A DNA stretch of 64,000 nt, taken from Candidatus Dormiibacterota bacterium (GTDB lineage: Bacteria; Acidobacteriota; Polarisedimenticolia; Gp22-AA2). The stretch is from the NCBI GenBank assembly GCA_035635555.1, contig DASQAT010000028.1, positions 7,885 to 71,884 on the forward strand, in the 5' to 3' direction. The position numbers and the translations under genes were made by a program. Under the pieces are notes generated by a model. That model had not been told where the DNA came from and ran no database searches. It saw only the letters and a program-made list of their open reading frames with translations. Below are positions 16,746 to 33,519 of the stretch, one piece after another (the first letter of the stretch is position 1; every line of letters begins with the position of its first letter).

Positions 16746-16766
16746 GGCGGACCCTCCTCACCGGAC

Positions 16767-16800
16767 AAAAAAAAGCCACAAAAGCCCCGGCTCTTGTGGT
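16767..16800 (-). terminator. Rho-independent terminator-like hairpin plus U-tract, between the upstream membrane-protein gene and csp
   Basis: On the minus strand, CCACAAGAGCCGGGGCTTTTGTGG forms a 6-bp stem and is followed by CTTTTTTTTG. It lies inside the 96-nt spacer before csp, so it may also act as an attenuator in the csp 5' leader. Confidence 0.5.
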
Positions 16801-20490: not shown

Positions 20491-20587
20491 TGGCGGAAGC
20501 GTGTGGGAATCGAACCCACCGGAGCCGGGTTCCCCCGGCTCCCAACGGATTTGAAGTCCGCGCAGGACACCAGCCCCGAGGCGCTTC
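20491..20587 (-). tRNA. selC: tRNA-Sec (selenocysteine, anticodon UCA), selC
   Basis: Reverse complement: GGAAGCGCCTCGGGGCTGGTGTCCTGCGCGGACTTCAAATCCGTTGGGAGCCGGGGGAACCCGGCTCGGTGGGTTCGATTCCCACACGCTTCCGCCA. Anticodon loop CTTCAAA gives UCA. The D-stem is 6 bp with a 4-nt loop (CGGGGC-TGGT-GTCCTG). The variable arm is 8 bp. The T-arm is GTGGG-TTCGATT-CCCAC. G73 discriminator and CCA end. The ends match E. coli selC closely (GGAAG…GGACTTCAAATCC…CTTCCGCCA). Confidence 0.85.
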
Positions 20588-20588
20588 C
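20549..20588. repeat. 40-bp direct repeat (att site copy inside the intact tRNA-Sec, covering tRNA nt 1-39 plus 1 flanking nt)
   Basis: tttgaagtccgcgcaggacaccagccccgaggcgcttccg is identical to 29978..30017. Confidence 0.85.
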
Positions 20589-20635
20589 GCAACCGGCCAA
20601 GTGTAGCAGAAGACGAGGGGTTGTCGGCGCTCCCG

Positions 20636-21775
20636 TCAGCGGCTCTCGCGATCTCCGCGATCTGACTGCGGCTCTGTCGCGGCTCCTTCGCCCTCCGGCG
20701 CGGGTTGATCGAGCAGCGCGGCTGTGCTGGCGCGACGGCCTTTCAGGAGATGGCCATAGCGCAAGGTCATGGCCAGGGTCTTGTGCCGCAGGAAGTCCCG
20801 CACGTCGTTGAGGGTCGCGCCCCGGTCGAGCAGTTCGGTCGCGGCCTGGTGCCGGAGATCGTGGAACTTGAACTTATCGACCCCCTTCCCGCCGCAGGTC
20901 GAGCAGGAGCGGTCGGGCTTGCCTTCGTTGGCCGCGAGGCACGCGCAGGGGCGCTTCAGGCCGGCGGCTTCGACGGCGAGGTCGAAGCGATAGCGGAGCT
21001 TCTGGCGGTCGACGCTGAAGACTGGGAGGGAAGGGTTGATCGGGCGGGGGAGACCCTCTAGCAGGGAGCGAGTCGTTGCGTTCATCTCGACGGTGCCGGT
21101 GCAGCCGTTCTTCGCATCGCGGAAGGTGATGATACCGCGCTTGAAGTCGATGTCCCGCCAGGTCAGCTTGAAGATCTCCCCCTGACGTGCTCCCGTGAAG
21201 CGAGCGAAGGTCACGACCGGCCGCACCCAGTCCGGACACGCCGACATCAGTGCCTTCATCTCGTCGACGCTCAGGTGCTTCACGCGCTCGTTGTGGACCT
21301 CGGGCCGCTCGATGTTGAGCGCGGGGTTCTCCTGCAGCTTGTGCAGCGCGACGGCTTTCTTGAAGAGTCGCTTGATCACCTGAACCTCCTGCAGGACCGT
21401 TGCTGGCTGCCTCTCGGTTTCTCTCTCGGCCTTGAAGTCGACGAGCATCTGGGTCGTGATGGCGGAGAGGTTGATCTTCCAGCGCTTCTTCAGGGCGTCG
21501 AGGATCTCCCGATCCCTCCGCGCGGACTTCTTATTCGCGCAGAAGGTCCGGAAGTAGTAGTCCGCGTACTCGCCGAACGTCATCGGGGTCGGCTTGAACG
21601 GGCGATGGCCATGCGTTGACTCGTAGACCTCGTCTTTGAAGACCTCGACCCGCTTTGCCTTCATCGCGGTCGCGGCTTCTTGCTTCGAGTCCGCGCTGCC
21701 GCAGTAGCGCTTCCCGTTGCGGCGGAACTCGAAGCACCAGCGAGGTGAGCCGGGCCTTTGGAAAGGGGCTCTCAT
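20636..21775 (-). CDS. int: Tyrosine-type site-specific integrase
   Basis: The C-terminal catalytic region has …HDLRHQAATELLDRGATLNDVRDFLRHKTLAMTLRYGHL… (R…HxxR…Y). The start is set at MRAPFQ, whose ATG overlaps the stop of the upstream RHH ORF as ATGA. There is an unusual Cys-rich insert (CACLAANEGKPDRSCSTCGGKG). Confidence 0.9.
   Translation of the reverse strand: MRAPFQRPGSPRWCFEFRRNGKRYCGSADSKQEAATAMKAKRVEVFKDEVYESTHGHRPFKPTPMTFGEYADYYFRTFCANKKSARRDREILDALKKRWKINLSAITTQMLVDFKAERETERQPATVLQEVQVIKRLFKKAVALHKLQENPALNIERPEVHNERVKHLSVDEMKALMSACPDWVRPVVTFARFTGARQGEIFKLTWRDIDFKRGIITFRDAKNGCTGTVEMNATTRSLLEGLPRPINPSLPVFSVDRQKLRYRFDLAVEAAGLKRPCACLAANEGKPDRSCSTCGGKGVDKFKFHDLRHQAATELLDRGATLNDVRDFLRHKTLAMTLRYGHLLKGRRASTAALLDQPAPEGEGAATEPQSDRGDRESR
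20668..20684. repeat. 17-nt direct repeat gcggctctgtcgcggct (copy 1; inside the integrase 3' end, ~80 nt from the att repeat)
   Basis: An identical 17-mer occurs at 29828..29844 near the other island end. It is a possible arm-type integrase binding site. Confidence 0.4.
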
Positions 21776-21957
21776 CCCTGCACCGCCTTCCTCGGCCACT
21801 TGCCTGTCGCCAGGCGCGATTCAGCCGCGCGGTTCATGCTGATGCCCAGGTCCTTTGCTGTCTTCGAGAGCAGAGTCTTCACCGCGGGATCGATCTTGAA
21901 GACCACCTGCACACGCTCCGTCTTCGGCTTGCCGTTCCCCTTCGTCTTGCTGCTCAT
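21772..21957 (-). CDS. Small DNA-binding protein, putative ribbon-helix-helix (Arc/MetJ-like) regulator
   Basis: 61 aa, basic N-terminus. VVFKIDPAVKTLLSKTAKDLGISMNRAAESRLA resembles an RHH beta-strand plus two helices. Translationally coupled to int. Confidence 0.45.
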   Translation of the reverse strand: MSSKTKGNGKPKTERVQVVFKIDPAVKTLLSKTAKDLGISMNRAAESRLATGKWPRKAVQG

Positions 21958-22046
21958 CGCCTTGCTCCTCGATCCCCGGTAGCCCGTGGTGGGCGCGGGG
22001 TCGCACCAATTGACGCTCCTTCTGCGGCTTTAGTCCAGGGTGAAGA

Positions 22047-22529
22047 TCAGAAATCCCACCATGAGTCCACCAGATCACCCGGGCTAGCCGGCCGGTACTC
22101 ATCGTTGCTTCGCCAGGACTCCGCGCTCTCGCCCCCTCTGAGCGGACCCCTGGGCCGGCTGCTCCCGGGCTCGACTAGAAGCGCCCTCCTGAGCCTGGGC
22201 GCACGGACTCGCTTCTTCTTGCTCAGGGGCTCGTCATCAGTCGGGATGCCCTTCTCTTGGGTGAATCCGATCCGGCTGCCGTAATCAGAGCCGCAGGGAT
22301 CAGCCGGCAGAGGAGGCTGCTCCTGCCCCAGAAGCCTCTCCCGCGGCTTCTGCTTCTGCTCCGCCTGCTGCTTCAGCCTCTCCCTCCGGGCCCTCTGCCT
22401 CTGTCGGGCCAGAAGCGCCTGCCTGTTGCTGCGAAGGCGCTGGCCCTTCTTCAGCCCCTTCAGGCGCCGCTCCGCCCTGCTGGTGGGCTCACGATCGGCT
22501 TTCTTCCTTCTGCTACGACTGCTGGGCAT
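22047..22529 (-). CDS. Highly basic Lys/Arg-rich hypothetical protein
   Basis: 160-aa ORF with coding-like codon usage (AAG/CAG-rich) and coiled-coil charge patterns. No homology recognisable by eye. Confidence 0.4.
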   Translation of the reverse strand: MPSSRSRRKKADREPTSRAERRLKGLKKGQRLRSNRQALLARQRQRARRERLKQQAEQKQKPRERLLGQEQPPLPADPCGSDYGSRIGFTQEKGIPTDDEPLSKKKRVRAPRLRRALLVEPGSSRPRGPLRGGESAESWRSNDEYRPASPGDLVDSWWDF

Positions 22530-22923
22530 TGCATTCTCCTGCTATGAAGCGTGACAGCGTGACGCGCGGGATGTCACGCCTTTCGTCACGCTGAAGGTGG
22601 TGGAAATATTCACACGGGTCCCCTGCCAGCTCCGCGCTCGCGTTCGGTTTGACAGATCTCCGGGCCTCCGCCTTCCCCTGGCTGAGCCGCGTAAGAGCCG
22701 CACGCACCGTGGCTTCCATGCGCATCTCTCGCTCGCTCCGCACGATGCGCCAGATGCAGAACGGACTAGCAGTGCGATCGGGCTTGATATCAAGTGGCCA
22801 GGGGCGGGCTCTGCAGCTTGCAAGTTGTGCGAGGGGGAGATTGAGCGCGCGCCCACCTGGCGGGGGATTCTGCGATCGAGCGCAGCGAGCCAGGTAGGTC
22901 ACGGCAAAGTTCACAAGGGTCAT
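22513..22923 (-). CDS. Hypothetical protein (weak call)
   Basis: ORF in island gene orientation. Its composition is odd and it may be spurious or regulatory. Confidence 0.25.
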   Translation of the reverse strand: MTLVNFAVTYLARCARSQNPPPGGRALNLPLAQLASCRARPWPLDIKPDRTASPFCIWRIVRSEREMRMEATVRAALTRLSQGKAEARRSVKPNASAELAGDPCEYFHHLQRDERRDIPRVTLSRFIAGECNAQQS

Positions 22924-22964
22924 GCACCCCCCCTCTCACACAGGCCCTTCCCCCTACCCGTGCC

Positions 22965-24443
22965 TCATGAACTTTGCCGTGAGTAGTTGTGGTTGGAGGA
23001 CACATCGCGGATGGCGGAGTAGATGCTCAGCGCGAGGTCGGTCAGGCGCCAGCGGGTGAAACCGCCTTCGTCGTCGGGGACCTTCTCGACCAGCGCCCCA
23101 CTGATCTTGGCGAAGCCGTAGAGGTAGTCCTGAGTCGTGGCGACCTTCACTCCAGCAGCGGTAGCGATCTCGGACGTGAGAGCGCCGGCCCCGTTGTCGT
23201 GAAGCAGCTTCACCGCGCCGAGGACGGCTCGCCGAGGAGGATTCATCGTGTCCAGCGCGACCCGGGCGACGGTCTGGAAGTCATCGGCTTCGACAGCTTC
23301 ATGGCCGCGGATTGAAGCGAGGCATTTGATCAGCGTGGTGAGGCCGATCGCGAGACGATAGGGCTGCTCTGCCTGAACGGAGCCGATCTTGCCGATCGCA
23401 TGCCGGCTCGGAACAGTGCGGGCCGTCGCGAGCCAGACCGCCAGCGAGGCAAGAGGCATCTCGAACTCCTTCGAGAGCGCGATGTCGATGGCGGAGCGGA
23501 ACGTGTGGCAGAGGAACTCCCCCACGGCACCATGAAGCGCCGTCTTCCGCTCGGTCTGGTGGCCGTGGTTGGCGATGATGCTGCGGACCTTGTCGAGATC
23601 GGCTTGGTCTTGAATGCGAACGAGCAGGAACCGCGGGCCAAGTTGAGCGAGGCTGTCTTGGTGGCGATCGATGACGTCGGTGACGGCGAGGAGCATCCCC
23701 AGGCGCCCCTTCCACTCAATCAGCCCGACGCCGCTGTCTTTCTTGAACGATCCATCGGCGATCTCGCGGAGGTTCCCCAGCAGATCGGCGACTTGGTTCT
23801 TCTGCTTTGTGAGGGTGGTGGTCAGGTCCTTCACGATCAGGACGAAGATCGTCGGCTTCCGCAGGAGGAGACTGTTCTGCGGATCGATCCCGCCACCATC
23901 GGAGGTCTGCTTGGCCGAGAGCAGCGCGTTCGGGGTGATCACCGACGCGATGTGAACCCTCGGGGACTTCGGATGACCATCCAGCGACTCCACGACTTCG
24001 GTCTTCCCCGCCGAGGAGGCTCCCACGATCATGAGACACACCGGCTGCTCGTCGACCAGGGCGATGCTGAGGTAACTCGCGAGGACGATCTCGATCCAGT
24101 CGAAGTCGCTGATACGAAGGTGTCGGGAGAATGCAGCGCGCAGCTTCTTGATGTCCTCCCGGGAGATCGGCGGGCCGGAGGGGATGCTGAGCGGATCAGG
24201 ACCCTCCTCGGGAGGTGGCGGAGCGAGAGCGGCGAGAAGCATCTGGTCCGCGAGGACCTGGGCTTCCATCTTGACCCGCTCGTCGGGATCGAGCTTCTTC
24301 GCCTTCTTGAGGATGTGCTGAAGCTTGACAAGCCGCGCTCGGGTCTCGACGATCTTCCTCGTATCCGCAGCGACCTGGGATTCGGCGAGGAGGTTCTGGA
24401 ACTCAGCTTCGGTCGGGGGCTGCGGCTTCGGTGTCTCGCTCAT
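22965..24443 (-). CDS. P-loop NTPase, primase-C-terminal/D5-like replication protein with a C-terminal winged-helix
   Basis: Start reassigned to MSETPKPQ. Walker A is MIVGASSAGKTEV. The region PTIFVLIVKDLTT is Walker-B-like. The C-terminal HTH-like segment is ALTSEIATAAGVKVATTQDYLYGFAKISGALVE. This is typical of the replication initiator in phage satellites and integrative elements. Confidence 0.6.
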   Translation of the reverse strand: MSETPKPQPPTEAEFQNLLAESQVAADTRKIVETRARLVKLQHILKKAKKLDPDERVKMEAQVLADQMLLAALAPPPPEEGPDPLSIPSGPPISREDIKKLRAAFSRHLRISDFDWIEIVLASYLSIALVDEQPVCLMIVGASSAGKTEVVESLDGHPKSPRVHIASVITPNALLSAKQTSDGGGIDPQNSLLLRKPTIFVLIVKDLTTTLTKQKNQVADLLGNLREIADGSFKKDSGVGLIEWKGRLGMLLAVTDVIDRHQDSLAQLGPRFLLVRIQDQADLDKVRSIIANHGHQTERKTALHGAVGEFLCHTFRSAIDIALSKEFEMPLASLAVWLATARTVPSRHAIGKIGSVQAEQPYRLAIGLTTLIKCLASIRGHEAVEADDFQTVARVALDTMNPPRRAVLGAVKLLHDNGAGALTSEIATAAGVKVATTQDYLYGFAKISGALVEKVPDDEGGFTRWRLTDLALSIYSAIRDVSSNHNYSRQSS

Positions 24444-24647
24444 TGTCCCTTCCGGATGATCGGGATGCCTTGGCGGAGGTCGACGAGTTCCTTCGCGGTC
24501 AGAGGGAAGGCGTCGAGGATAGTCGGGGGTTGTGGGGAGGGCTTCGGCTGCTGGGCGCTCACTTTCATCCTCCTCCCCTCCAGCGGCAGCGCGGGGCTCC
24601 GCCAGGAGGGGCACTTCGCTTCGGGTTAACTTCGACTCTCCTTCTAT

Positions 24648-24818
24648 CTAATCCGGGCCGTGATCAGATGGGGCCTTGCGGATCACGACCCCCTTGAGCT
24701 TCTCCCGGGCTTCGAACGCTCGCTGGCATTTGGCGCACCTCGTCTGCCCAGCGCGGATGGGGTCGGAGCAATCGCGGCAGCGAGTGCCCTCAGTGCCGGG
24801 TTGGCTCTCCAAACTCAT
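24648..24818 (-). CDS. Small zinc-ribbon protein (56 aa; not in ORF track)
   Basis: Manual translation gives MSLESQPGTEGTRCRDCSDPIRAGQTRCAKCQRAFEAREKLKGVVIRKAPSDHGPD, with CxxC…CxxC. Its ATG overlaps the upstream stop as ATGA. Confidence 0.5.
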   Translation of the reverse strand: MSLESQPGTEGTRCRDCSDPIRAGQTRCAKCQRAFEAREKLKGVVIRKAPSDHGPD

Positions 24819-25087
24819 CCATTCACCGCCCGGGCGATCTGCTGCCGCAGAGATTCGACCATCTGGCTTGCCAGGGCAGCTTGAACGTCCGGGGGAGTCG
24901 ATGTGGCCTCGTCGTTGAATATCTGCTGCACCATCAGCGTTGCGGTCTGATCGATATAGAAGCCGACGAGCCTCGGCCGATAGTCAGCCGGCTGGCCGAA
25001 CGAAGGGGGCAGCCCGTTCAGATCGCGGTCGACAAGGGCGCGGACGGAGACTTCAGCTTCGACGATGGAGATGGTTCTGAGCTTCAT
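24815..25087 (-). CDS. Hypothetical protein (90 aa)
   Basis: ATGA-coupled both to the upstream 231-aa ORF and to the downstream Zn-ribbon ORF. Confidence 0.45.
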   Translation of the reverse strand: MKLRTISIVEAEVSVRALVDRDLNGLPPSFGQPADYRPRLVGFYIDQTATLMVQQIFNDEATSTPPDVQAALASQMVESLRQQIARAVNG

Positions 25088-25779
25088 GGCTTCTCCCTAT
25101 AGTCAGGCGGAGTCGAATCGCCGACGTGCTGGTCACACAGCATTCGGGTCGACTTCTGCCGCGCCACGAAGCCTTGTCCGCAATCGGGGATCGCACAAGT
25201 GCGAGCGACGAAGGGGTCCTCGGGGAGGAATGACAGAGGAGCAGCGCCTGCCCTCGTTGCCTTCACCACCCGATCGGTCGCCAGGCTGGCAGCGATGGTG
25301 TCGTCAGAAGCGATGGCCTCGGCGTAGTCCCGATCAGGGGCCAGATCCACAACCAGCTTCGCGGCGAGGGCGATCGCCTGACGCTCCTGGCGATCCTCTT
25401 TCTCTGATTCCTTCTTCATGGTAGCGAGATAGCTGGCGAGTTGCCGCTCTTCGTCGGCATCGAAGGGATCACGACCGAGGCTTACGAGGTACTTCCTCGC
25501 TGCGTCGACGTAGCAGAGCATCGTTCGGTAGAGTCGAGTTGCGTAGGTCGGGATGGTGCTGGGCATGATGCTTGATTCCTTTCGTTTGAACGGGACGATG
25601 TTCTCTGGGACAGGGTCGGTTCTGTGGTACTTCGAGCAGCAGGCTCCGCAGGCTGGGTCATCATGCGGGCAGAGTTCCGCGCTGGTGTTCTGGCCGAGAA
25701 TCAGTCCGCACCTCGGGCAGCGCATGTAGATCTGGCCGGCTTGCTTCTGGATGTCGTCGGTCACGGCTTGACCAGACAC
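25084..25779 (-). CDS. Hypothetical Zn-ribbon-containing protein (231 aa)
   Basis: N-terminal CPRCG…CPHDDPACGACC and C-terminal CAIPDCGQG…CDQH cysteine clusters. Confidence 0.5.
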   Translation of the reverse strand: MSGQAVTDDIQKQAGQIYMRCPRCGLILGQNTSAELCPHDDPACGACCSKYHRTDPVPENIVPFKRKESSIMPSTIPTYATRLYRTMLCYVDAARKYLVSLGRDPFDADEERQLASYLATMKKESEKEDRQERQAIALAAKLVVDLAPDRDYAEAIASDDTIAASLATDRVVKATRAGAAPLSFLPEDPFVARTCAIPDCGQGFVARQKSTRMLCDQHVGDSTPPDYREKP

Positions 25780-25907
25780 AGCAGCTCGTTCAATCGTTGG
25801 AGAATCGCTGCCATGTTCTCTGGATCAAAGTCGCTGGTCGTACTGAGCGTGACTCTCGTGTTGCCGCAGGTGGCAGAGAGGGTGTATGCGTACTTGCGTT
25901 GAGACAT
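25761..25907 (-). CDS. Small hypothetical protein (48 aa)
   Basis: Start MSQRKYAYTL… has a GAGGAG RBS. The track ORF 25761..26096 probably includes a spurious N-terminal extension. Confidence 0.4.
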   Translation of the reverse strand: MSQRKYAYTLSATCGNTRVTLSTTSDFDPENMAAILQRLNELLCLVKP

Positions 25908-26231
25908 TTGTTTCTCCTCTGTGGTGATGTGACCAGCGCCCCAGGGCCCGACAACCTGAGCGGGCGAGAGCAGCGCTGGTCCCCGACGCTCTCTGATCGG
26001 CCTTGCATGATTCGGCGCACCCAGCCAGGCTTCGTCCCCTTCGCGGGTGACGGACGCGAGTGGGCAGGGCTGGATGCGCCTGGCCCCAGGACCCAAGGCG
26101 CGGACGGCCTAGTAGAGTTCGCGCCACGGGTCCGCAGGGATTTCGAAAGAGCCAGCAGGCCGCACTGGGGGCCGTAAGTCCCCCTGGAATCACCTGCTGG
26201 CCGCGAGGATTCCCGCTCGCTTCTCGTCGAG

Positions 26232-26540
26232 TTAGGCGTTCCTGATGCCGTAGACGATCATCCCTTTCGTGTCGAGACCCGCGCTGTTGTTCACCACGAG
26301 CGCCTGATTCGGCTCGCAGGCGAACAGCGGGGCCGCGACAGAACCGTCGAGGCTGATTCCCCCTGACGTGCCGAGGCTGAAGGTCCCGTGCGTCGTCGAG
26401 CCGGACTTGAGGATCGCGCTGCCGGCGGTGGTCTGGCCGGTCAATACGAGGTTGGTTACGACGATGGCGAGACCTGCTCCGGGAGCGGCGAGAATCGTGT
26501 TGTCGCCGTCGTTTGCTGCTGAGACGTTGATTGAAGCCAT
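26232..26540 (-). CDS. Gly/Ser/Thr-rich beta-strand hypothetical protein (102 aa)
   Basis: MASINVSAANDGDNTILAAPGAGLAIVVTNLVLTGQTT… is fibre- or structural-like in composition. No signal peptide. Confidence 0.4.
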   Translation of the reverse strand: MASINVSAANDGDNTILAAPGAGLAIVVTNLVLTGQTTAGSAILKSGSTTHGTFSLGTSGGISLDGSVAAPLFACEPNQALVVNNSAGLDTKGMIVYGIRNA

Positions 26541-26588
26541 GACTTGAAGTGCTCCTTGAATGCGCGACCCGTAGGCCGCGCGGGTTGG

Positions 26589-27464
26589 TTACTTCTGGTC
26601 CCGTCGACTCGCGGAATGGGCCCAGACGACCGCGCTGAAAGCTGCGTACTGCTCCTGACTCAAGACATTCCCGAAGGTCGCGTCGACATCGATCTTCGCG
26701 CCGTTGAGATCGGCAGCGACCTTGGCGAGGGAATGAGCCCGATCGAAGGCGTCCATGATTCGCGGGTCGGACATTCTCGGGTAGACTTTCGAGATCGCCA
26801 CGCCACGCGGACCCAAGGGCGCCCTGACCGTCTGGGCGGTCTTGAAGATCTGCTCGGCAATCTCGTCGACGAGGATTCCGATCGCCTTCGCCTTCAGATC
26901 GGAAGCTTCCTGCTGCAGGAACTCACGCTGGCGCTGCTCCTTCGCGATCTCTCTCTCGTCGACCTCCACCGTCTCGGCGAGATCGAGGAGGGCTTCGATG
27001 ACTTCCAGCGGGACAGGCAGCTTGCGGAGTTCATATTGCGTGCGCTGCTCCTTCAACCGGGAGAGTGCGAATTTCCTCTGCTCCCGATCAGCGCGGATCT
27101 TCAGCCGCTCTGATTCCGCGGGACAGGCTTCGAGGATCTCTTGCGCAGCCGCGAGGAGATGGCGGCAGTTCTCGACGAAGTTGGCGAGGTCCTTCTTCTG
27201 CCCTGGGGTGGCAGCGTTGGCGAGCCGGGCTTCAGCTTCAGCGAGGACGCCGACGCAGGAGTCGCGGTTCTGACTCAGCGTCGGCGAGAAGTAATCCGGG
27301 TAAGTGGCGCGGCATTTCCACTCCGCCTGGTGGGCCTCAGCAGATGCCTTGGCCCAGGATTTCGGGACGGAATCGCCGAGGACTTCGAGCGCCCGGGGGA
27401 TGCTGGAGGTCTGGCTGAAATCCCCACGCCAGTGGGAGGGGACGTGGCCGTTAGAATTGCTCAA
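26589..27464 (-). CDS. Hypothetical coiled-coil protein (291 aa)
   Basis: The central Glu/Arg/Lys-rich helical region runs from EQRKFALSRLKEQRTQYELRKL to REFLQQEASDLKAKA. No catalytic motif. Confidence 0.45.
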   Translation of the reverse strand: MSNSNGHVPSHWRGDFSQTSSIPRALEVLGDSVPKSWAKASAEAHQAEWKCRATYPDYFSPTLSQNRDSCVGVLAEAEARLANAATPGQKKDLANFVENCRHLLAAAQEILEACPAESERLKIRADREQRKFALSRLKEQRTQYELRKLPVPLEVIEALLDLAETVEVDEREIAKEQRQREFLQQEASDLKAKAIGILVDEIAEQIFKTAQTVRAPLGPRGVAISKVYPRMSDPRIMDAFDRAHSLAKVAADLNGAKIDVDATFGNVLSQEQYAAFSAVVWAHSASRRDQK

Positions 27465-27708
27465 CGTGATTCTCCTTGCGAAGGCCCTTCGGGAGCCTCG
27501 CGTTGAATTGCTTGCACGCGCTTCGGATTCGGGACTCGGAAGGCGATCGGCCCAGCCAGCAGATCACCCGCTCCCGCCTGGGCGAGCTTGAGATCTGCTC
27601 GACGAGATAGCCGTAAATCGCGCCGTCCGGTCGCACGCTCAGGCGCACTGAGCGCGTCTTGGAACTGGCCGAGCGGACAAGCCTCCGGCCGCTGCGGGTT
27701 TGGGACAT
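27451..27708 (-). CDS. Small basic hypothetical protein (85 aa)
   Basis: Overlaps the downstream ORF by 14 nt. Arg-rich. Possibly nucleic-acid binding. Confidence 0.35.
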   Translation of the reverse strand: MSQTRSGRRLVRSASSKTRSVRLSVRPDGAIYGYLVEQISSSPRRERVICWLGRSPSESRIRSACKQFNARLPKGLRKENHVEQF

Positions 27709-27815
27709 GGGTTCGGGTCTCCTAGAGGGTGGTCTTCTGCTCAGTTAGGACTATACCGCGCAGAGGGGGTGCTTGTCAACCGAAATCGTTGGAAACAATG
27801 GACTTGCAAGGTCGC

Positions 27816-28070
27816 TCACCCCTCCGCGCTGATAGCAGATCGATCTCTGAGCCAGCGGACCACAACTTGCAAATCGTGCCTTCGATGCCGGTGCTTCCCG
27901 AGGCCCAGATCTGCGGCCACGGGCAAGCCGACCCGCAGCATGCGCTTGTAGGCGCTCCCGCTCATCTTGAAGTGATGGCGAAGCTCCGCGCCGGTGAGCA
28001 GCGGCTGGGGCGCTTCATCTGGGCGAGCCTTCGGCAGAGGAGGTCTCTTCGGGTCCATGTCGGGGACCAT
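27816..28070 (-). CDS. AlpA/excisionase-family helix-turn-helix DNA-binding protein
   Basis: LTGAELRHHFKMSGSAYKRMLRVGLPVAAD is the MerR/AlpA-type HTH seen in phage Xis and PICI AlpA proteins. Confidence 0.6.
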   Translation of the reverse strand: MVPDMDPKRPPLPKARPDEAPQPLLTGAELRHHFKMSGSAYKRMLRVGLPVAADLGLGKHRHRRHDLQVVVRWLRDRSAISAEG

Positions 28071-28150
28071 ACCCCCACCTGATCGGTTCGTCGAGCGGAA
28101 TCGTCAGCAACCTTGGGGCGTGGGTTTGATAGCAGGAGGGGGAGCGGGAG

Positions 28151-29005
28151 CTACTTGAAGTCCGGATAGTAATCCGCGCTCGTGAACTGTGGCGGACCCT
28201 CTTCGTCCTCGTCCATCCAGACGATCCTCCCGAAGGGGGAGAACTCCTCTTTGAATCGGCGCCATAGCTGGGGGGCAACACACACGGCGATGGTGCCTTG
28301 CTTCGGAGAGTGCTTCGTCCCTCCGGGCGTGCGGTAGCGGAGATCACGATTGAAGATGCAGATCGGGAAGGCCAGCATCGGGGCGAACCAGGGCATGGCG
28401 AGGTGGCCACGGTTGAGGATCACGATCGCGGAGTACACATTGCCATCGCGCTGGCGGAAGGAGGAATAGACCTTCTCGACGAACCTCCCGGTGTCCTTGC
28501 ACCAGGGCGGGTTGTGAAACATCCTCTCCGCTTCCCAGCGCTGATTCAGTCCATCGATCCCAGCCGAGCCCGGCTCAGGGCGCAGGGAGAAGAATCGCTC
28601 CGCGTCGACGATCTTGTTGGCCTCGGTGCAGGAAGCCGGATCGAGGTTGAATCGCCCGCCGAGGACCCTTCTGGCAGCATCGACGACCTCGATGGGGGTA
28701 TACCACTCGTCTGAAAACGACACTTTGTCGCTTTCGTCCGGGTCCGGGAGCCAGGTCTCGTTGGCCTGGACCCTCCGTGCCCATTTCATCCATCTCTGGG
28801 CGGTGCGCTTGTCGAAGATGCGGACGTTCTCGGCGAGGTAGGCTTCCCACTTCCCGTGACCGACCTTCTCCTTCGCTTCGATCAGCCGGAGCCCGAGGAT
28901 GTAGTTATTCTCCCGACGGGTCCGCATGAGGCTTTGGATGTCGGCGGTGATCTCCTCCAGGGTATCGAGGGGCAGGACAATCGGCAGGATCGCGGGGTCG
29001 AACAT
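28151..29005 (-). CDS. Orphan phage-type DNA N6-adenine methyltransferase (Dam family, PF05869-like)
   Basis: NPPW (NPPY/W catalytic motif IV) occurs in …ERMFHNPPWCKDTGRFVEK…. The EWYTPIEVVDAARRVLG N-terminal motif is typical of phage Dam. No adjacent restriction endonuclease. Confidence 0.75.
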   Translation of the reverse strand: MFDPAILPIVLPLDTLEEITADIQSLMRTRRENNYILGLRLIEAKEKVGHGKWEAYLAENVRIFDKRTAQRWMKWARRVQANETWLPDPDESDKVSFSDEWYTPIEVVDAARRVLGGRFNLDPASCTEANKIVDAERFFSLRPEPGSAGIDGLNQRWEAERMFHNPPWCKDTGRFVEKVYSSFRQRDGNVYSAIVILNRGHLAMPWFAPMLAFPICIFNRDLRYRTPGGTKHSPKQGTIAVCVAPQLWRRFKEEFSPFGRIVWMDEDEEGPPQFTSADYYPDFK

Positions 29006-29086
29006 GGGCCCTCCGCGACGGAATCTAGCTCACTCTGGCCGGCGGTGCCAGGGGGACCCCGGGCGCGGTGCGGGCGGAGGTAAGTC

Positions 29087-29812
29087 CTATCGGGGCCAGG
29101 GAGGCCACGACAACGAATAGAATATCTCGCAGATGAAGCCGACGAGAAACCACAGCCCGATACTCGCGAGGATCAGCGCGGGGACGTGGCCCAACCACAG
29201 GCTCTTCGGGTAGGGAACCCTGCCAGGATTATCAATGACCCGTTGCACCTCGTCCCGCGCTCGCTTCCACGTGGAGTGCAACCCGTCCTGATCGGCCGCG
29301 GTGCCGATCCCTCGCACATGGATGTCCCTGTTCAACCGGAAAAGCTCATCGAACCACGCAGGAGGTACCGCGCCGCGATCTCTCGCCGCGGCCATCGCCT
29401 GGCGACCCTCGTCGCGCCATACGAAATCCCGGTGCGATCGAAGGAGCCCACGGAAGTGCTCGATCGCCGTCTCCAGCGAGGCCATAGCTGACCGGAGCCC
29501 CTCGGGAACGGGCATGCGGTAGGCGACCCGGTTGAACTCGTGAATGTGATCGGAAGGGAAATCATTGACCGACCACAGAGGCTCGCGCCAGGTTGGGGAA
29601 GGAGCGCCTGCGGCCGGGTACTCGGTCTGAGCCCAGTGTCCGATGAACACAAGATCGTTCATCACCTGCCTGAGATGCTGACGGGCCTCGTCCCACTTCT
29701 CGCGTCGTCCTTCCCAAGCGTCCAGCGCATACACTATCCACGCGACCACCGGCGCCAGGCTGACCGATGTGCCGGTGATGAGGTTCTTGAGATTCTCAAT
29801 GGGATCGGACAT
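29087..29812 (-). CDS. Hypothetical protein with a C-terminal TM anchor (241 aa), first gene inside the island
   Basis: C-terminal GHVPALILASIGLWFLVGFICEIFYSLSW is a TM segment. The rest is a soluble Trp/Arg-rich domain. Confidence 0.45.
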   Translation of the reverse strand: MSDPIENLKNLITGTSVSLAPVVAWIVYALDAWEGRREKWDEARQHLRQVMNDLVFIGHWAQTEYPAAGAPSPTWREPLWSVNDFPSDHIHEFNRVAYRMPVPEGLRSAMASLETAIEHFRGLLRSHRDFVWRDEGRQAMAAARDRGAVPPAWFDELFRLNRDIHVRGIGTAADQDGLHSTWKRARDEVQRVIDNPGRVPYPKSLWLGHVPALILASIGLWFLVGFICEIFYSLSWPPWPR

Positions 29813-29827
29813 CTGGCCCCTGATCCC

Positions 29828-29844
29828 GCGGCTCTGTCGCGGCT
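29828..29844. repeat. 17-nt direct repeat gcggctctgtcgcggct (copy 2; ~135 nt inside the attL-side repeat)
   Basis: Identical to 20668..20684. Confidence 0.4.
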
Positions 29845-29977
29845 ATTTCGAGCGCCACCCCTGGTCCATCGGGGCCTGATCGGGATCTTCCTGGCCTCAC
29901 CGCGCTCAGGAGCCCCGAATCCAGGCCATCCCGCAGGCCCTAGAGCAGCGCGGGGTTGCGGCGAACCGGGGCTCTAC

Positions 29978-30017
29978 TTTGAAGTCCGCGCAGGACACCA
30001 GCCCCGAGGCGCTTCCG
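29978..30017. repeat. 40-bp direct repeat (partial tRNA-Sec 5'-half copy; att site at the far island end)
   Basis: Identical to 20549..20588. Only tRNA nt 1-39 are present, so this is a remnant, not a functional tRNA. Confidence 0.85.
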
Positions 30018-30068
30018 TCGAGCGAACTCGCGCCATTGTATCGCAAACGGCGCGGAGATCGGATTGCG

Positions 30069-31706
30069 CTAGTGGCCGATCGTCGCCACGTACACCTGCC
30101 AGCTGCTCCCGGGAACCTGCTGCTGTGCATAGGCGACATACGCGCGCGTCCCCGAGGAAGCGATACCGAGGTAGTCGTTCCCTACACCGAACCCGGGGGC
30201 GAGAGGGGTGAGGCGGACATTCGGGGCCCAGGAGATCCCGCCGTCCACCGACCAGGAATAATAGACGTCGAGCGGCTGAGTCCACGAGCCGCCGTATGTC
30301 TTCGGGCTCGAGTTGCGATAGTCGAACCAGGCGATGTCGAGCCGGCCGTTTCCGCCGACGGACAGAGTCGGCTTCCACCGGTCTACGATATCGTCGGGAA
30401 GAACATCGTCCACCCGGACCGGGGCGCTCCAGGTCGCGCCGGCGTCCGATGACCTGATGACGTAGATGTCTCGATGAATGACCGGCTGCAGCTGTAGTGC
30501 CACGAACGCTATCCACACCCTTGAGGGGTTGGCGGGATCGGTGGCGCTCCACATTTCGTCCGGGATCGTCGTGGGAGTCCGGTTGAATACACACAGGGGA
30601 TTCGGGAAGCTGCCCCCACCGTCGGTCGATTTGAGGAGACCGATACCGATTCCAGACGGACAGAGAGGACCATAGGAGCCCCCCGCGAGGTACACCGTCC
30701 CATCCTGCGCCACGGCGATGTTCTGAAAATCGCCGGCCGGGTCGGCGTTGTCGTCTCCCGCGATGAACGCCTGGTCCCAATCGGTCCCCCCGGCGGGGAA
30801 GCGGCGGAAGGCCCAGAACCAGCCACCATCGCAGCTCCCGTCCCCGTTGGTGTCGACGCTCATTCTCGTGACGACGTATTGATTGTCCCGGTACTGGGAG
30901 GTGGAGCTTCGATCGGCGCCCAGTTTCGGGTAATCGAAGCGAAGGGTCGAGTTCGCGCAGGCGGTCTTCAGGGAACCGTCCTTGAACCGCACCAAGGTGT
31001 CTGAATTGAAGGCGTACGTGGGGGTGGCGAAGGTGGCCCCACCATCGGTCGAACGCGCCACGATCAGGCCTCCCCGCACGGCGCCAACGTCCCCGTCGAT
31101 GAGATTGCTCACAAGGACGTTTCCGGCGGAATCGAATCGGATGTTGGTGTCGCCCATGTAGATCGGCCCCGGCCCCACGCCCGGGCTCCACTGGGCGCCC
31201 CCGTCCGACGAATGGAACGCGGGATAGGGGACTGAATCAGGCCCAGGTTGCCAGGGCACATCGTGGACCGACAGAGCCAGTTTCTGGGGGTCGAGGGGAC
31301 TGACGTCGATGTTCGTCTCGCCAAACGAGTTCGGGATCGCCGTGGTCCTGAACTCGAGGATATTCCGTGTGGTCTGGCCTCCCAGGTTGGACTGATCGAT
31401 TACCTCGAGCCGGATGTTTTTCGTGCCGAAGGCTCCGTACTGGACATTGATGATCCTCCCCGTGGAGAAGCTCGTGTCCCACACGCCGTCGTTCTGGAAG
31501 TCCCACCGGAAGCGCAATCGGTCGAGGGGTGTCTTGTCGTCCGTCGTGCACGACGCGTCGAGCGCGTAGGTGGTCCCTTCCACCCCGTAACCTGGGCTGG
31601 GAGTGAAGCAGGCGACGGGCGCCAGATTCTTTGCCGCCTCGACGGGAGGGGCAAAGGCCACCAGCACGAGCAGGACGAATGCGACGGTCACCGCGTCACA
31701 TTTCAT
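30069..31706 (-). CDS. Secreted BNR/Asp-box repeat protein (sialidase-like / glycosyl hydrolase-like beta-propeller) with an N-terminal PKD-like domain
   Basis: Signal peptide MKCDAVTVAFVLLVLVAFAPPVEA. PKD-like RFRWDFQNDGVWDT. Multiple Asp-box SxDxGxTW-like motifs (SSDGGAQWS, STDGGATFA, STDGGGSFP, SSDAGATWS, SVDGGISWA). Confidence 0.7.
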   Translation of the reverse strand: MKCDAVTVAFVLLVLVAFAPPVEAAKNLAPVACFTPSPGYGVEGTTYALDASCTTDDKTPLDRLRFRWDFQNDGVWDTSFSTGRIINVQYGAFGTKNIRLEVIDQSNLGGQTTRNILEFRTTAIPNSFGETNIDVSPLDPQKLALSVHDVPWQPGPDSVPYPAFHSSDGGAQWSPGVGPGPIYMGDTNIRFDSAGNVLVSNLIDGDVGAVRGGLIVARSTDGGATFATPTYAFNSDTLVRFKDGSLKTACANSTLRFDYPKLGADRSSTSQYRDNQYVVTRMSVDTNGDGSCDGGWFWAFRRFPAGGTDWDQAFIAGDDNADPAGDFQNIAVAQDGTVYLAGGSYGPLCPSGIGIGLLKSTDGGGSFPNPLCVFNRTPTTIPDEMWSATDPANPSRVWIAFVALQLQPVIHRDIYVIRSSDAGATWSAPVRVDDVLPDDIVDRWKPTLSVGGNGRLDIAWFDYRNSSPKTYGGSWTQPLDVYYSWSVDGGISWAPNVRLTPLAPGFGVGNDYLGIASSGTRAYVAYAQQQVPGSSWQVYVATIGH

Positions 31707-31797
31707 GAGGGATTCCCTCCATGTTGTCGTCGAAGATTTTGTTGGTGTTTATACGCCATCGACGAACCGCGTGCAACAGGAAGATTCCCCGCTCGGT

Positions 31798-32145
31798 TCA
31801 CCAGGTGACGTTCCAGGCCGCGCCGATGTCGCCGCCGCTCACGAACAGGAGCGAGCCTGTGTAGCGGCCGCGGGACAGACTGAAGATCGAGTTGTAGTGC
31901 TCACCGTTGTAGGTCACGAGTGCGGACAGACTCTCGGTCACGGCGACGTTGACCCCGCCGATGAACCGCAGGCGGTCGTCGTACGTGCCATAGGCCGCCC
32001 CGGCATACGGCGCGATCGGCACGCGCAGGAGCGGCTTGAGAGTCTTGCTGAAGGTGGCGTAGTAGGCGTGACCCGAAGGAGTGCCGATCCGATCGGTGCT
32101 CGTCCCCAGGATGAGCGCCGGGCGGCGAGTCGTCTCCTGCATCAC
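31798..32145 (-). CDS. Hypothetical protein / possible truncated outer-membrane beta-barrel C-terminal fragment
   Basis: The ORF ends in an aromatic residue (…AAWNVTW) with alternating hydrophobic beta-strand patterns. Its reading frame stays open a further 66 codons upstream (to the stop at ~32344-32346) with no start codon. This suggests a degraded or nonstandard gene. Confidence 0.3.
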   Translation of the reverse strand: MMQETTRRPALILGTSTDRIGTPSGHAYYATFSKTLKPLLRVPIAPYAGAAYGTYDDRLRFIGGVNVAVTESLSALVTYNGEHYNSIFSLSRGRYTGSLLFVSGGDIGAAWNVTW

Positions 32146-32352
32146 CAGCCAGTTCGCCAGCGGCGCGACTTCATCGGCCTTCGGGTTGTACTCGACGCCG
32201 GCGGTGAACGTCCTCAGGAACCGGTAGGTCAGGGTGAAGCGCCACGTGGCTCGCGGGATCTGGTTGTTGATCCAGCGGGCGCTGAAGATCCATCTCTCTT
32301 CGAGCGATTCGGCGGTCCCCCGGACCGCCCGGCCTTCGCCGGGTCAGAGAGG

Positions 32353-32982
32353 TCAGCTGGGGACGAGAGACGGTCCGTCCAGCCCGACCCCCGCGCCGTG
32401 GTGATGATCGTGTTCGTGGCCGCCGGTGGCGGCGGGCGGGATCGGCACTCCGACCGGTGGGGAGGGCGCGGGAGCCGATCTGTCCCCGAGCAGCCAGTCG
32501 ATCCACCGATTGAGTCCCGCCTCGTCGATGATGCCGGGCGCACGCGCGACCACGGTGCCGTCGCGGTCGATGATCGCCGTCGCCGGCAGAGCCGTGCCGA
32601 GTCCCAGGCGTTGCATGTCGACCGTTGTCGCGCCGATCCAGATCGGGAAATGGATGCGCTGCTCCTGAACGAACGCTTGGACTGCGCGTTCATTCCCTGC
32701 CTCATCCGCGGACGCGCCGATCACCTGCACCCCCTCGGCCGCCCGGTGCTCCTGCAGCCTGACGAAGACCGGCATCTCCTTGCGGCAGGGGATGCACCAC
32801 GTCGCCCAGAAGTTCACCACCACGATCCTGCCCTCGAGGTCTTTGAGGTCGCGCGTGCGGCCTTCGAGATCCTGGAGCACGAGCGTAGTCCGGCTCCCCG
32901 TCGCCGGCGGCTCTTCGGCCGCTCCTGCCTGGAGCGCCGAGGCCGAGAGGATTAGGCCCAGCACCAGAGCCGTTTCAGTCAT
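32353..32982 (-). CDS. TlpA-family periplasmic thiol:disulfide oxidoreductase with a His-rich C-terminal tail
   Basis: Signal peptide, WCIPC active site (VVNFWATWCIPCRKEMP). The tail GGHEHDHHHGAG suggests metal binding. Confidence 0.8.
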   Translation of the reverse strand: MTETALVLGLILSASALQAGAAEEPPATGSRTTLVLQDLEGRTRDLKDLEGRIVVVNFWATWCIPCRKEMPVFVRLQEHRAAEGVQVIGASADEAGNERAVQAFVQEQRIHFPIWIGATTVDMQRLGLGTALPATAIIDRDGTVVARAPGIIDEAGLNRWIDWLLGDRSAPAPSPPVGVPIPPAATGGHEHDHHHGAGVGLDGPSLVPS

Positions 32983-33458
32983 GGCGGCCCACCTCGACCG
33001 GATTCGACTTCCGGCACATCGACGCTGAGCGGCGCCTCCTGGTCGCAGGTGAAGGAAGCGATGAACCGGACCGGCTCCCTGTCGCTGGCATTGGCGGAGA
33101 TCAGATGAATGCCGTTGGGGTCTTCATAGAAGCTCTCGCCGGCCCGGTAGATCGCTTCGGGCTGACCCTTCACCTGCGTCCGGTAAGCCCCTTCGACGAC
33201 ATAGCCGATCACCGGGCAGGGATGACTGTGAGGGGGGGAGGACCCGCCGGGTCCGTACGTGACCTCCACCACCGTGACGCCGAGATGGCTGCCATCCATC
33301 CGGGGCAGCGCCTGGGACATCACGGTGCGGTCCTTCTCGTCGGCGGCGCGGGGGCGCAGGTGACCGGAATTGCAGCCGAGCACGGCAGCGCACAGCATCC
33401 CTGCGGCAAGTCCGGTCCGCAGCCTGCGTGGCGGGGAATCGTCCGAAGATCCGAACAT
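32979..33458 (-). CDS. Cupin-domain lipoprotein
   Basis: The lipoprotein-like N-terminus LCAAVLGCNSG carries a lipobox. Cupin motifs are G(X)5HxH…(PHSHPCPVIGYVVEG) and …GIHLI…. The stop overlaps the TlpA start as ATGA. Confidence 0.65.
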   Translation of the reverse strand: MFGSSDDSPPRRLRTGLAAGMLCAAVLGCNSGHLRPRAADEKDRTVMSQALPRMDGSHLGVTVVEVTYGPGGSSPPHSHPCPVIGYVVEGAYRTQVKGQPEAIYRAGESFYEDPNGIHLISANASDREPVRFIASFTCDQEAPLSVDVPEVESGRGGPP

Positions 33459-33519
33459 GCTTCAAGCCTAGCATGGCTCGCGCCCCATAGTATGATGACG
33501 CCCTCAGTCGGGAGACGGC

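Follow-up and report, generated by a model that had tools for sequence, protein, structure and literature searches.

A 9.4-kb integrative island in the 5' half of a tRNA-Sec gene, with reversed polarity, and its relatives in Acidobacteriota metagenomes

In enterobacterial selC islands such as LEE and SHI-2, a P4-type integrase gene is located downstream of the tRNA; these islands recombine at the selC 3' end and leave the host promoter in place. An earlier bacterial case of tRNA integration in reversed polarity was reportedly described by Zhao and Williams in 2002; it is said to involve a tyrosine integrase, an att identity block formed by the 5' part of the tRNA, and an element, upstream of the restored tRNA, on which that tRNA has to rely for expression. 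Bacterial integrations in which the 5' half of a tRNA gene and its promoter are replaced are described as very infrequent (PMC6563490, PMC8371274). In archaea, the pTN3-like integrases (Cossu et al. 2017) have the tRNA 5' half as attB (PMC8371274). These integrases are 'suicidal', their gene being split by integration, and expression of the recombinant tRNA comes from integrase-side element DNA. An anticodon-loop class of tRNA-targeting integrases has also been defined (Williams 2002 NAR 30:866; Campbell 2003; both via PMC8371274), in which the identity block reaches from the loop to the tRNA 3' end and attP lies just downstream of the integrase gene. The anticodon loop with its stem mimics a 7-bp overlap with core sites (PMC8371274).

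The locus described here lies in a 64-kb stretch of DNA, referred to as the window. The reversed 5'-half arrangement is already known, and the island is a further case of it, accompanied by a clade-level pattern; it is not a new class of mechanism. The features that define the island are as follows.

20491-20588, minus strand: intact tRNA-Sec gene, anticodon TCA (ARAGORN)
20550-20589, minus strand: repeat copy 1, the attR-like junction next to the integrase (repeat search and sequence)
20636-21775, minus strand: tyrosine integrase reading towards the tRNA, 379 aa counted from the ATG at 21775 (PF00589, phrog_1)
29978-30017, minus strand: repeat copy 2, attL-like junction, the displaced tRNA-Sec 5' part followed by island DNA (repeat search and sequence)

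The tRNA-Sec gene matched the Rfam family RF01852 over its full length at 20495-20588 (75.9 bits against a gathering score of 47), and its sequence is identical to the native tRNA-Sec of the relative L013. A repeat search found a 40-nt direct repeat of 100% identity with a spacing of 9428, which on the tRNA strand consists of one upstream C and tRNA nt 1-39, its final base being the last of the anticodon loop (CTTCAAA). The bases directly past the repeat are TCCGTT in the intact gene versus GTAGAG in the partial copy. No third copy was found within the window, and by simple arithmetic a perfect 40-mer repeat would be expected by chance about 1e-15 times in 64 kb. The bracketed DNA amounts to 9.4 kb, all genes called within it share the minus strand with the tRNA, and 47 nt separate the end of the integrase gene from the tRNA +1. 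Repeats of a tRNA segment at both ends, with an integrase beside one of them, identify a tRNA-integrated island; duplication of the tRNA 5' part, with the intact gene downstream of the element, identifies its polarity as reversed. The sequence-only reading had proposed such an insertion, with tRNA nt 1-39 duplicated and the intact gene beside int and downstream of a co-oriented island. The repeat anatomy bears this out, as do the empty sites and related islands described below; its perfect 40-bp repeat also stands, except that the first copy, given as 20549-20588, was one base off.

We put the probability at roughly 85% that a 9.4-kb integrative element entered the tRNA-Sec gene and brought with it a promoter and a tRNA 5' half, leaving a working tRNA-Sec that is now a hybrid. 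The intact gene is composed of nt 1-39 from the identity block shared by element and host and nt 40-98 from the host. The integrase would have recombined the element attP with attB in the host tRNA-Sec gene, the attP carrying a promoter and tRNA-Sec nt 1-39 instead of the usual 3' part. Crossover would have taken place within these 39 nt, most likely in the 7-nt anticodon loop, which is flanked by the anticodon-stem inverted repeat; on the island side, however, the attP core beyond the loop (GTAGAG) does not form a dyad with the stem. The restored gene would then join an element promoter and an element-type 5' half to a host 3' half, so that selenocysteine decoding would be preserved, and the previous promoter and 5' half would have been moved 9.4 kb upstream, facing into the co-oriented island genes.

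The island shares with the earlier bacterial case its tyrosine integrase, its 5' identity block and its position upstream of a tRNA that it must express, but differs in its tRNA-Sec target, its Acidobacteriota host and the clade of its integrase, and in a polarity that is seen across that clade, alternating with the canonical one. As in the anticodon-loop class, the identity block has an edge at the anticodon loop and attP is placed just downstream of the integrase gene; the block is however the mirror image, extending from the loop to the 5' end plus promoter. As with pTN3-like elements, the recombinant tRNA would be expressed from integrase-side element DNA, in this case from a candidate promoter. 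A suicidal integrase of the pTN3 type was rejected, since the island integrase is intact when integrated, its ORF ending 47 nt before the repeat, and the island further differs in being bacterial and in having a separate promoter-like motif in the 47-nt spacer. The enterobacterial selC/P4-type arrangement was likewise rejected, as the repeat covers nt 1-39 and the integrase, upstream of the tRNA, is transcribed in its direction. The comparison with the selC hotspot made in the sequence-only reading therefore applies to the tRNA-Sec gene as a shared island target and is otherwise an analogy, since those islands use the 3' end and P4-type integrases.

Genomes were scanned with a 24-nt tRNA pattern, yielding 20 loci, nearly all from Acidobacteriota or Candidatus Polarisedimenticolia MAGs. 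At 17 of these a single tRNA-Sec is followed by the same small95, orf280 and M49 genes as at 20455-17657 of the window, with no integrase, and they are therefore empty sites; the comparison with island-free relatives asked for in the sequence-only reading came out in its favour. In 15 relatives a divergent ETF-QO homologue is located just upstream of the tRNA-Sec. The closest relative is L023, whose M49 is 90% identical.

The same layout was found in independent islands. L002 encodes an integrase of 79% identity and differs in its cargo; tRNA nt 1-41 are copied at 87-127, and the integrase, 47 nt and an intact tRNA-Sec come in that order, the two tRNA copies being 10.1 kb apart on one contig. 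In L110, L111 and L112, from three samples, an integrase of 75% identity is followed by 47 nt, tRNA-Sec and the host small95 gene. One MAG, represented by L025 and L027, has the ETF-QO gene, a native promoter, a 53-nt 5' copy and island DNA in succession, with the intact tRNA on the other contig. In L113 (72%) the integrase precedes tRNA-Arg(TCG) in the same polarity, and the anticodon arm, CGGACTTCGAATCCG, is one base from the Sec arm. Integrases of 47-54% identity show reversed polarity at tRNA-Leu and tRNA-Glu, including that of L126 (47%), a complete 9.3-kb island in which tRNA-Glu nt 1-41 is duplicated. Reversed integration is thus seen with both junctions, with empty sites and in several independent relatives.

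The DNA beyond the partial tRNA copy contains the following features.

30018-33469, minus strand: extra non-ancestral 3.4-kb block separating the partial tRNA copy from the ancestral neighbour (absent in 15 relatives)
30035-30040, minus strand: TACAAT, a -10-like box 17 nt before the displaced 5' part of the tRNA, facing into the island (sequence)
30069-31706, minus strand: BNR/PKD protein (Pfam)
31798-32145, minus strand: orf115, within the 3.4-kb block
32353-32982, minus strand: TlpA-like protein (Pfam)
32979-33458, minus strand: cupin (Pfam)
33520-35217, plus strand: ETF-QO-like gene, ancestral divergent neighbour of tRNA-Sec (tblastx of relatives' upstream flanks)

The distance from ETF-QO to tRNA-Sec is about 90-350 nt in relatives versus 12.9 kb in the window. 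In alignments, homology to L023, L022 and L029 ends at about 33470, roughly 40 nt upstream of the expected tRNA start; the ancestral flank resumes only there, so that the gap between the tRNA and its ancestral neighbour is 12.9 kb and not 9.4 kb. A host promoter had been expected 9.4 kb away, beside the partial copy. A promoter-like box does occur at that position, but it is not ancestral, because the 3.4-kb block separates it from the ancestral neighbour. Since the partial copy does not adjoin the ancestral flank, the locus has a history of more than one event. It is possible, though we hold this only tentatively, that the locus is a composite of at least two successive insertions, the partial copy being the border with an older remnant (30018-33469) that had replaced the ancestral promoter. 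The end of the relatives' homology near 33470 and the loss of the ancestral TGCTAnACT promoter agree with this, as does the island-like G+C content of 0.63 from 30018 to about 32000, compared with about 0.69-0.70 in the host. The GCGATACAATG context of the TACAAT box recurs upstream of tRNA-Sec only in L017, which has a truncated integrase N-terminal remnant 120-270 nt upstream of its tRNA-Sec (tblastn, 41% over 51 aa, E = 4e-4), and L114 offers a tandem array of integrase, partial tRNA-Glu 5' half and second element. Against a composite, the block holds no integrase, integrase fragment or further tRNA fragment, its cupin, TlpA-like and BNR/PKD genes are ordinary cellular types, the flank upstream of the tRNA is different in L011 and L020 as well, and the block could be a lineage-specific rearrangement unrelated to mobile elements. 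Successive insertion would be compatible with the integration of a 9.4-kb element proposed above, and would refine it.

The integrase matched PF00589 (2.4e-19, 70.2 bits, cutoff 27.1) and the integrase family phrog_1 (4.8e-56). It has the catalytic R-K-H-x-x-R-H/W-Y residues of tyrosine recombinases, with a readable HDLRH motif; in an alignment of 18 sequences of its clade R197, K222, H305, R308 and Y340 are invariant and H331 nearly so. The exact protein is already on record, P0001 is an NCBI MAG protein of 100% identity, and the closest phage integrases have at most 28% identity. Further features of the island are listed here.

20668-20684, minus strand: AGCCGCGACAGAGCCGC motif in the integrase 3' end, candidate arm-type site (motif scan)
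21772-21957, minus strand: 61-aa protein overlapping the integrase start, candidate directionality factor (conservation beside the integrase)
22965-24443/24614, minus strand: large protein of 492-549 aa with a P-loop (GASSAGKT Walker A motif in the translation)
24648-24818, minus strand: 56-aa zinc-finger protein (phrog_54 DksA-like zinc finger, 2.1e-05)
28151-29005, minus strand: DNA methyltransferase with N-terminal DUF3102 (phrog_111 5.5e-12; PF11300 3e-07)
29087-29812, minus strand: 241-aa protein, first island gene past the displaced promoter and partial tRNA (ORF and gene call)
29828-29844, minus strand: second, identical copy of the AGCCGCGACAGAGCCGC motif, 134 nt in from the opposite island end, candidate arm-type site (repeat and motif scan)

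The 61-aa protein matched no family in profile searches, and is kept beside the integrase in L002, L110, L113 and L004 (tblastn, 46-60% identity), making it a candidate directionality factor. Perfect matches to AGCCGC-N5-AGCCGC number three in the whole window, every one of them in the island, and with up to one mismatch eight were found in the window against 2.09 expected. A homologous motif at the 3' end of the integrase does not vary among L002-L005, but the corresponding end of L002 lacks a copy, which weakens the case for an arm-type site at 29828-29844.

The cargo is only partly recognisable. The large P-loop protein gave sub-threshold matches only (AAA_16 0.061, Zeta_toxin 0.041); it occupies the position at which related elements carry AAA_25/DnaB-type replication proteins, and has no sequence similarity to the AAA_25 genes of L114 and L116. 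The 56-aa protein looks like a DksA/TraR-type zinc finger. DEWYTP and NPPW motifs are present in the methyltransferase translation, and homologues of this gene occur in islands L002 and L025, while the 241-aa protein matched no family in profile searches. The integrase, the DNA methyltransferase and the Walker A motif of the P-loop protein named in the sequence-only reading were recovered, whereas its primase-like, AlpA-like Xis and RHH labels found no family support in Pfam and PHROG searches of the island ORFs. A prophage was rejected, as no PHROG structural, packaging (terminase) or lysis family was detected in any island ORF. Most cargo genes are without recognisable function.

That the island is a fixed relic, no longer mobile, appears doubtful. 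The unrecognisable state of most accessory genes would suit a relic, no excised form was seen, and no excisionase family was detected among the island ORFs by profile searches. However, the 40-nt repeats have not diverged from each other, the full-length integrase has kept its catalytic residues, and the small integrase-linked gene is conserved across the clade. Moreover, none of the 17 related genomes has the element, which speaks for its recent acquisition.

As the island sits in the 5' half of tRNA-Sec in reversed polarity, the intact tRNA needs either an island promoter or read-through, a dependence that had been anticipated and is supported by the reversed insertion. A motif of native type stands on the island side:

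20600-20627, minus strand: candidate element-borne tRNA promoter (CCGACA at 20627-20622, 16-nt spacer, TGc-TACACT)

Its -10 hexamer, TACACT at 20605-20600, is 11 nt before the tRNA +1, and the island-side motif at this distance upstream of the intact tRNA-Sec reads TGCTACACT. The island junctions of L002 and L110-112 have TGCTA[C/T]ACT at an equal distance, in L113 in the form CGCTACACT. Among 18 uninterrupted relatives, 16 have the native footprint TGCTAnACT/TAnACT 10-13 nt upstream of tRNA-Sec. A generic promoter scan did not call the candidate at 20600-20627 (8/12 matches). The recurrence of the native footprint on the island side of the intact tRNA suggests that the promoter of the restored gene was most likely supplied by the element, in which event the host's only tRNA-Sec comes to depend on element DNA for its expression. 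The alternative that tRNA-Sec is transcribed only by read-through from the integrase and island, TGCTACACT being a passive relic of captured host sequence, seems distinctly unlikely. Read-through would be favoured by the common orientation of the tRNA, the integrase and every island gene, by L126 and L114, where 7 nt between the integrase stop and the tRNA-Glu 5' end leave no room for an intergenic promoter, and by pTN3-like elements, for which expression from the integrase promoter has been reported (PMC8371274). Yet the Sec and Arg members keep the -10-like motif and its distance while the surroundings and the integrase C-terminus diverge, and an essential tRNA under a normally repressed integrase promoter would presumably be a risk to the host.

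A chimeric MAG contig joined through the tRNA-derived repeat can be dismissed as very improbable, for although the window comes from a metagenome assembly and chimeras classically form at tRNA genes, independent assemblies of other samples (L002, L003; L110, L111, L112) have this same integrase-tRNA-Sec-host junction, both repeat copies are in the single L002 contig, and both island flanks are contiguous with host genes syntenic in relatives. A Logan contig of 9448 bp (L001) consists of the island interior and 30 nt of each repeat; its ends probably reflect a k=31 graph break, and it is therefore uninformative on circles.

Within the integrase clade, drawn mostly from Acidobacteriota metagenomes, reversed polarity predominates and switches with the canonical one. 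The integrase is co-directional with its tRNA in 8 of the 11 members examined (at least 43% identity), so that the polarity, rare as stated when judged by the literature (PMC6563490, PMC8371274), is not rare here; it is the commoner arrangement in this environmental clade, which uses tRNA-Sec, tRNA-Arg, tRNA-Leu and tRNA-Glu. The reversed identity blocks end at nt 39, 41, 41 and 53, and L040, a canonical distant relative, duplicates nt 33-77; the part common to both is the anticodon loop. The clearest case for orientation switching is a pair of integrases 86% identical to each other, both at tRNA-Leu(TAA) in opposite polarities. It is conceivable, at slightly under even odds, that what the clade recognises is the anticodon stem-loop with its symmetry, and that the attP core may lie either way round with respect to the integrase gene and the arm sites. 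Lineages would then switch repeatedly between the 3' half and promoter plus 5' half, and reversed elements would place their own co-oriented genes under the displaced tRNA promoter. If such a transfer occurs, island expression would be coupled to the integrated state, and an orientation-tolerant clade would be a natural system for the evolution of integrase polarity and target choice. Paired polarities at one tRNA offer a concrete case in which to test what determines the directionality of tRNA-targeting integrases, and island-finding software that assumes 3'-side integration will mis-delimit reversed elements. Among the related elements, L114 and L126 carry a Phage_capsid gene.

A tRNA-SeC gene with anticodon TCA was identified by ARAGORN on the minus strand of the window (20491-20588), and the Rfam tRNA-Sec model (gathering score 47) aligned to it end to end with 75.9 bits. 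A repeat search of the window returned a 40-nt direct repeat of 100% identity (20550-20589 and 29978-30017) with a spacing of 9428 nt; the perfect 40-bp repeat described in the sequence-only reading is therefore real, but its first interval had been placed one base off. On the tRNA strand the repeat comprises one upstream C and tRNA nt 1-39, and the repeat and tRNA coordinates agree on this as the duplicated segment, as had been claimed. Identity ends exactly after the anticodon loop CTTCAAA, beyond which the intact gene continues with TCCGTT and the partial copy with GTAGAG. All island genes between the repeats are on the tRNA strand, and the last of them, the tyrosine integrase gene (20636-21775), ends 47 nt upstream of the tRNA +1, so that the intact tRNA does adjoin int and is co-oriented with the island. 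The G+C content falls from approximately 0.70 to 0.63 across the region. The earlier observation of an island in tRNA-Sec with inverted polarity was thus confirmed and its interpretation supported. Elsewhere in the window, tRNA-Sec nt 1-12 recur exactly over 12 nt at 37027-37038 (minus strand, E = 0.27), probably by chance. The junctions predicted for the recombined sites are as follows.

Predicted attP junction: ...TGCTACACTTGGCCGGTTGC-GGAAGCG...CTTCAAA-GTAGAGCCCCGG
Predicted attB junction: ...GATACAATGGCGCGAGTTCGCTCGAC-GGAAGCG...CTTCAAA-TCCGTTGGGAG

The comparison with uninterrupted relatives proposed in the sequence-only reading was carried out by searching a set of genomes, one for each species, for a 24-nt stretch of tRNA-Sec. 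This returned 20 loci, nearly all from Acidobacteriota or Candidatus Polarisedimenticolia MAGs. At 17 of them, downstream of tRNA-Sec, lie homologues of the small membrane protein, 280-aa ORF and M49 peptidase genes that occupy this position in the window, with amino-acid identity of up to 90% at the closest locus, L023, and an integrase is absent from all 17. At 15 loci the gene directly upstream, and divergent, is a homologue of the ETF-QO-like gene at 33520-35217 of the window. These empty sites and the conserved ETF-QO neighbour together show that the island was inserted into a locus whose ancestral arrangement is conserved among the relatives. Among viral contigs the tRNA pattern gave zero matches, and no integrase relative recovered there exceeded 31% identity; for phage integrases, identity to that of the window reaches 28% at most. 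The taxon labels conflict: P0001, an integrase homologue of 100% identity, is labelled Candidatus Dormibacteraeota, most of the syntenic relatives are Acidobacteriota/Polarisedimenticolia, and some MAGs sharing that synteny (loci among L010, L014 and L016) carry the labels Verrucomicrobiia, Cryosericum or Dongiaceae, which are probably unreliable.

The partial copy does not adjoin the ancestral flank. Homology to three relatives (L023, L022 and L029) ends at approximately 33470, about 40 nt before the expected tRNA start, and the ancestral tRNA-Sec promoter is missing on the partial-copy side. The intervening segment is:

30018-33469: non-ancestral block of 3.4 kb from the partial copy to the ETF-QO-like gene, encoding a BNR/PKD protein, orf115 (115 aa), a TlpA-like protein and a cupin

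Its first two genes (BNR/PKD and orf115) have an island-like G+C content, and the TACAAT box at 30035-30040, next to the partial copy, resembles only the promoter of L017, another tRNA-Sec locus. We give slightly under even odds to the block being the remnant of an earlier insertion. L017 pairs the same promoter type, GCGATACAATG, with an adjoining truncated integrase N-terminal remnant 120-270 nt upstream of tRNA-Sec (41% over 51 aa to the integrase homologue P0021, E = 4e-4; a SNF2-like helicase ORF lies farther upstream), and tandem accretion is directly visible in the related element L114, where an array at L114:9519-15840 contains an integrase, a partial tRNA-Glu 5' half and a second element. 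Against this, a further tRNA-Sec fragment, which would have proven a tandem array, was not found in the 64-kb window, including the region near 32-33.5 kb.

At E <= 1e-20, 86 homologues of the window integrase were found, and genomic contexts were recovered for eleven members of this clade, the window included.

Genomic contexts of the integrase clade (integrase identity to the window; target; orientation of integrase and tRNA; remarks)
Window; tRNA-Sec; co-directional; both ends seen
L002, 79%; tRNA-Sec; co-directional; both ends seen, nt 1-41 duplicated, 10.1 kb, different cargo
L110-112, 75%; tRNA-Sec; co-directional; host small-protein gene next, three samples
L113, 72%; tRNA-Arg(TCG); co-directional
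L004, 54%; tRNA-Leu(TAA); co-directional; contig ends in anticodon stem
L114, 48%; tRNA-Glu(TTC); co-directional; partial 5' half, then second element
L125, 48%; tRNA-Glu(TTC); co-directional
L126, 47%; tRNA-Glu(TTC); co-directional; L126:1821-11216, both ends seen, nt 1-41 duplicated, 9.3 kb
L005; tRNA-Leu(TAA); convergent (canonical)
L009; tRNA-Glu(TTC); convergent (canonical)
L116/117; tRNA-Glu(TTC); convergent (canonical)

Although 5'-side polarity had been called rare, it predominates in this clade (8 of 11 contexts co-directional). A further tRNA-Sec island is split between L025 and L027, contigs of one MAG, with a 53-nt 5' copy beside the native promoter and ETF-QO. The loci L004:10001-11218 and L005:7558-9198 have integrases 86% identical to each other, both beside tRNA-Leu(TAA) but with the tRNA oppositely oriented. 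The tRNA end that faces the integrase is the 5' end in L004, where a TAGAAT box precedes it by 8 nt, and the 3' end in L005. Between the integrase and tRNA of L005 is a segment of approximately 375 bp (L005:8657-9055) with a 94-aa minus-strand ORF, flanked by duplicated CCGAAGCCGAACGTGAGCCGAACGC; L006-L008 share this structure. The complete reversed island L126, which carries Phage_capsid, DnaB/AAA_25 and HTH_17 genes, looks like a satellite.

The matches listed from a metagenome scan with the integrase alignment (L030-L109) are all of 25-35% identity and served for an orientation census only. Among these, at least 44 loci have a tRNA no more than 700 nt beyond the integrase end, at least 20 co-directional and at least 24 convergent, and a second tRNA copy was seen only in L040 (canonical, nt 33-77 duplicated). 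A 5'-half copy upstream of the integrase was not found in the co-directional loci L035, L042, L073 and L096, each with approximately 10 kb of upstream sequence, and reversed polarity is therefore unproven for distant relatives. In L035, element genes (AAA_25/DUF3854) lie upstream and host genes downstream, and the repeat is absent within 10 kb.

Enterobacterial selC islands use the tRNA 3' end, whereas the present island uses the 5' half. Examples of recombination with the 5'-distal part of tRNA genes are on record but are described as considerably less frequent (PMC6563490, which cites Zhao and Williams 2002 and several archaeal cases); the situation is also described as seldom encountered in bacteria, and pTN3-like elements as expressing the restored tRNA from the side of the integrase (PMC8371274). 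The present island appears to work in the same way and is a further case of a kind of element already known, but it is not of the pTN3 type with its suicidal integrase, because its integrase gene stays intact. What it adds is the predominance and the switching of polarity at the level of a clade.

TAnACT precedes the tRNA 5' end by 10-13 nt in 16 of 18 uninterrupted relatives, often in the form TGCTA[C/T/G]ACT, and we read this footprint as the native -10 region. A similar arrangement is present on the island side of the intact tRNA:

20627-20600, minus strand: candidate element promoter, CCGACA, 16-nt spacer and TGc-TACACT, ending 11 nt before the intact tRNA

The -10-like motif and its spacing are shared by the independent islands L002 (TGCTACACT), L110-112 (TGCTATACT) and L113 (CGCTACACT), around which the integrase C-termini and adjacent bases diverge. 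The L110 version of the motif hardly differs from the native promoter of L028, a related locus, suggesting that the element captured a host promoter along with the tRNA 5' half. A generic promoter scan called neither tRNA promoter of the window nor the versions in related islands, and the basis for a putative element-side promoter is comparative, not biochemical. It is possible that tRNA-Sec is instead expressed by read-through from the integrase gene. In the integrated island the displaced promoter and the 39-nt stub face into the co-oriented island genes, whose transcription could, speculatively, depend on the integrated state.

The reversed identity blocks end at tRNA nt 39, 41, 41 and 53; what they share with the nt 33-77 duplicated in canonical L040 is the anticodon loop, in agreement with the accepted view of the loop and its stem as a mimic of core sites around a 7-bp overlap (PMC8371274). 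Since the loop is near the middle of the tRNA, a flip of the gene changes little in how far the loop lies from the integrase gene or from a conserved AGCCGC-N5-AGCCGC motif in the integrase 3' end. Loop and motif are approximately 111 nt apart in the window, and from the motif to the near tRNA end is 52 nt in L004 and 57 nt in L005. Only three perfect sites occur in the 64 kb (20668-20684, 22685-22701 and 29828-29844), all within the island, and the first and last, identical 17-mers, sit near its two ends. Relatives keep a homologous motif in the 3' end of the integrase gene; the distal copy is absent from L002, and a role as an arm-type site is thus only weakly suggested. A 9448-bp Logan contig, L001 (SRR6267142), was rejected as an excised circle: it consists of the island interior and exactly 30 nt of each repeat, which is expected from a k=31 graph break and so is silent on a circular form. 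It places the same island in the SRR6267142 assembly graph.

The tyrosine integrase assignment was borne out (PF00589, 2.4e-19; phrog_1, 4.8e-56), and the catalytic residues are kept in the clade alignment. An exact-protein match was obtained with the ATG start at 21775 and none with the longest ORF (GTG start). The other island genes characterized, all on the minus strand, are:

21772-21957: 61-aa gene overlapping the integrase start and kept beside the integrase in four related elements; a candidate directionality factor
22965-24614: large protein with a Walker A motif and no family match
24648-24818: small zinc-finger protein (phrog_54)
27816-28070: 84-aa protein
28151-29005: DNA methyltransferase, as previously proposed (phrog_111, 5.5e-12, and DUF3102)

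The labels primase-like, AlpA-like Xis and RHH found no support for any island protein, even with Pfam at a permissive E-value, and no phage structural genes were detected in the island. At about residues 277-300 of the window integrase, immediately ahead of the HDLRH catalytic motif, most members of the clade alignment A2 have an insertion of approximately 30 aa that contains four cysteines (CxC...CxxCxGxG). This insertion resembles a DnaJ-type zinc-finger motif, is absent from the homologues P0024, P0028, P0031 and P0038, and does not track polarity. Outside the island, the stretch 16495-16794 (minus strand), upstream of what looks like a cold-shock protein gene, matches the cspA thermoregulator RNA family below threshold (53.7 bits; gathering score 78).
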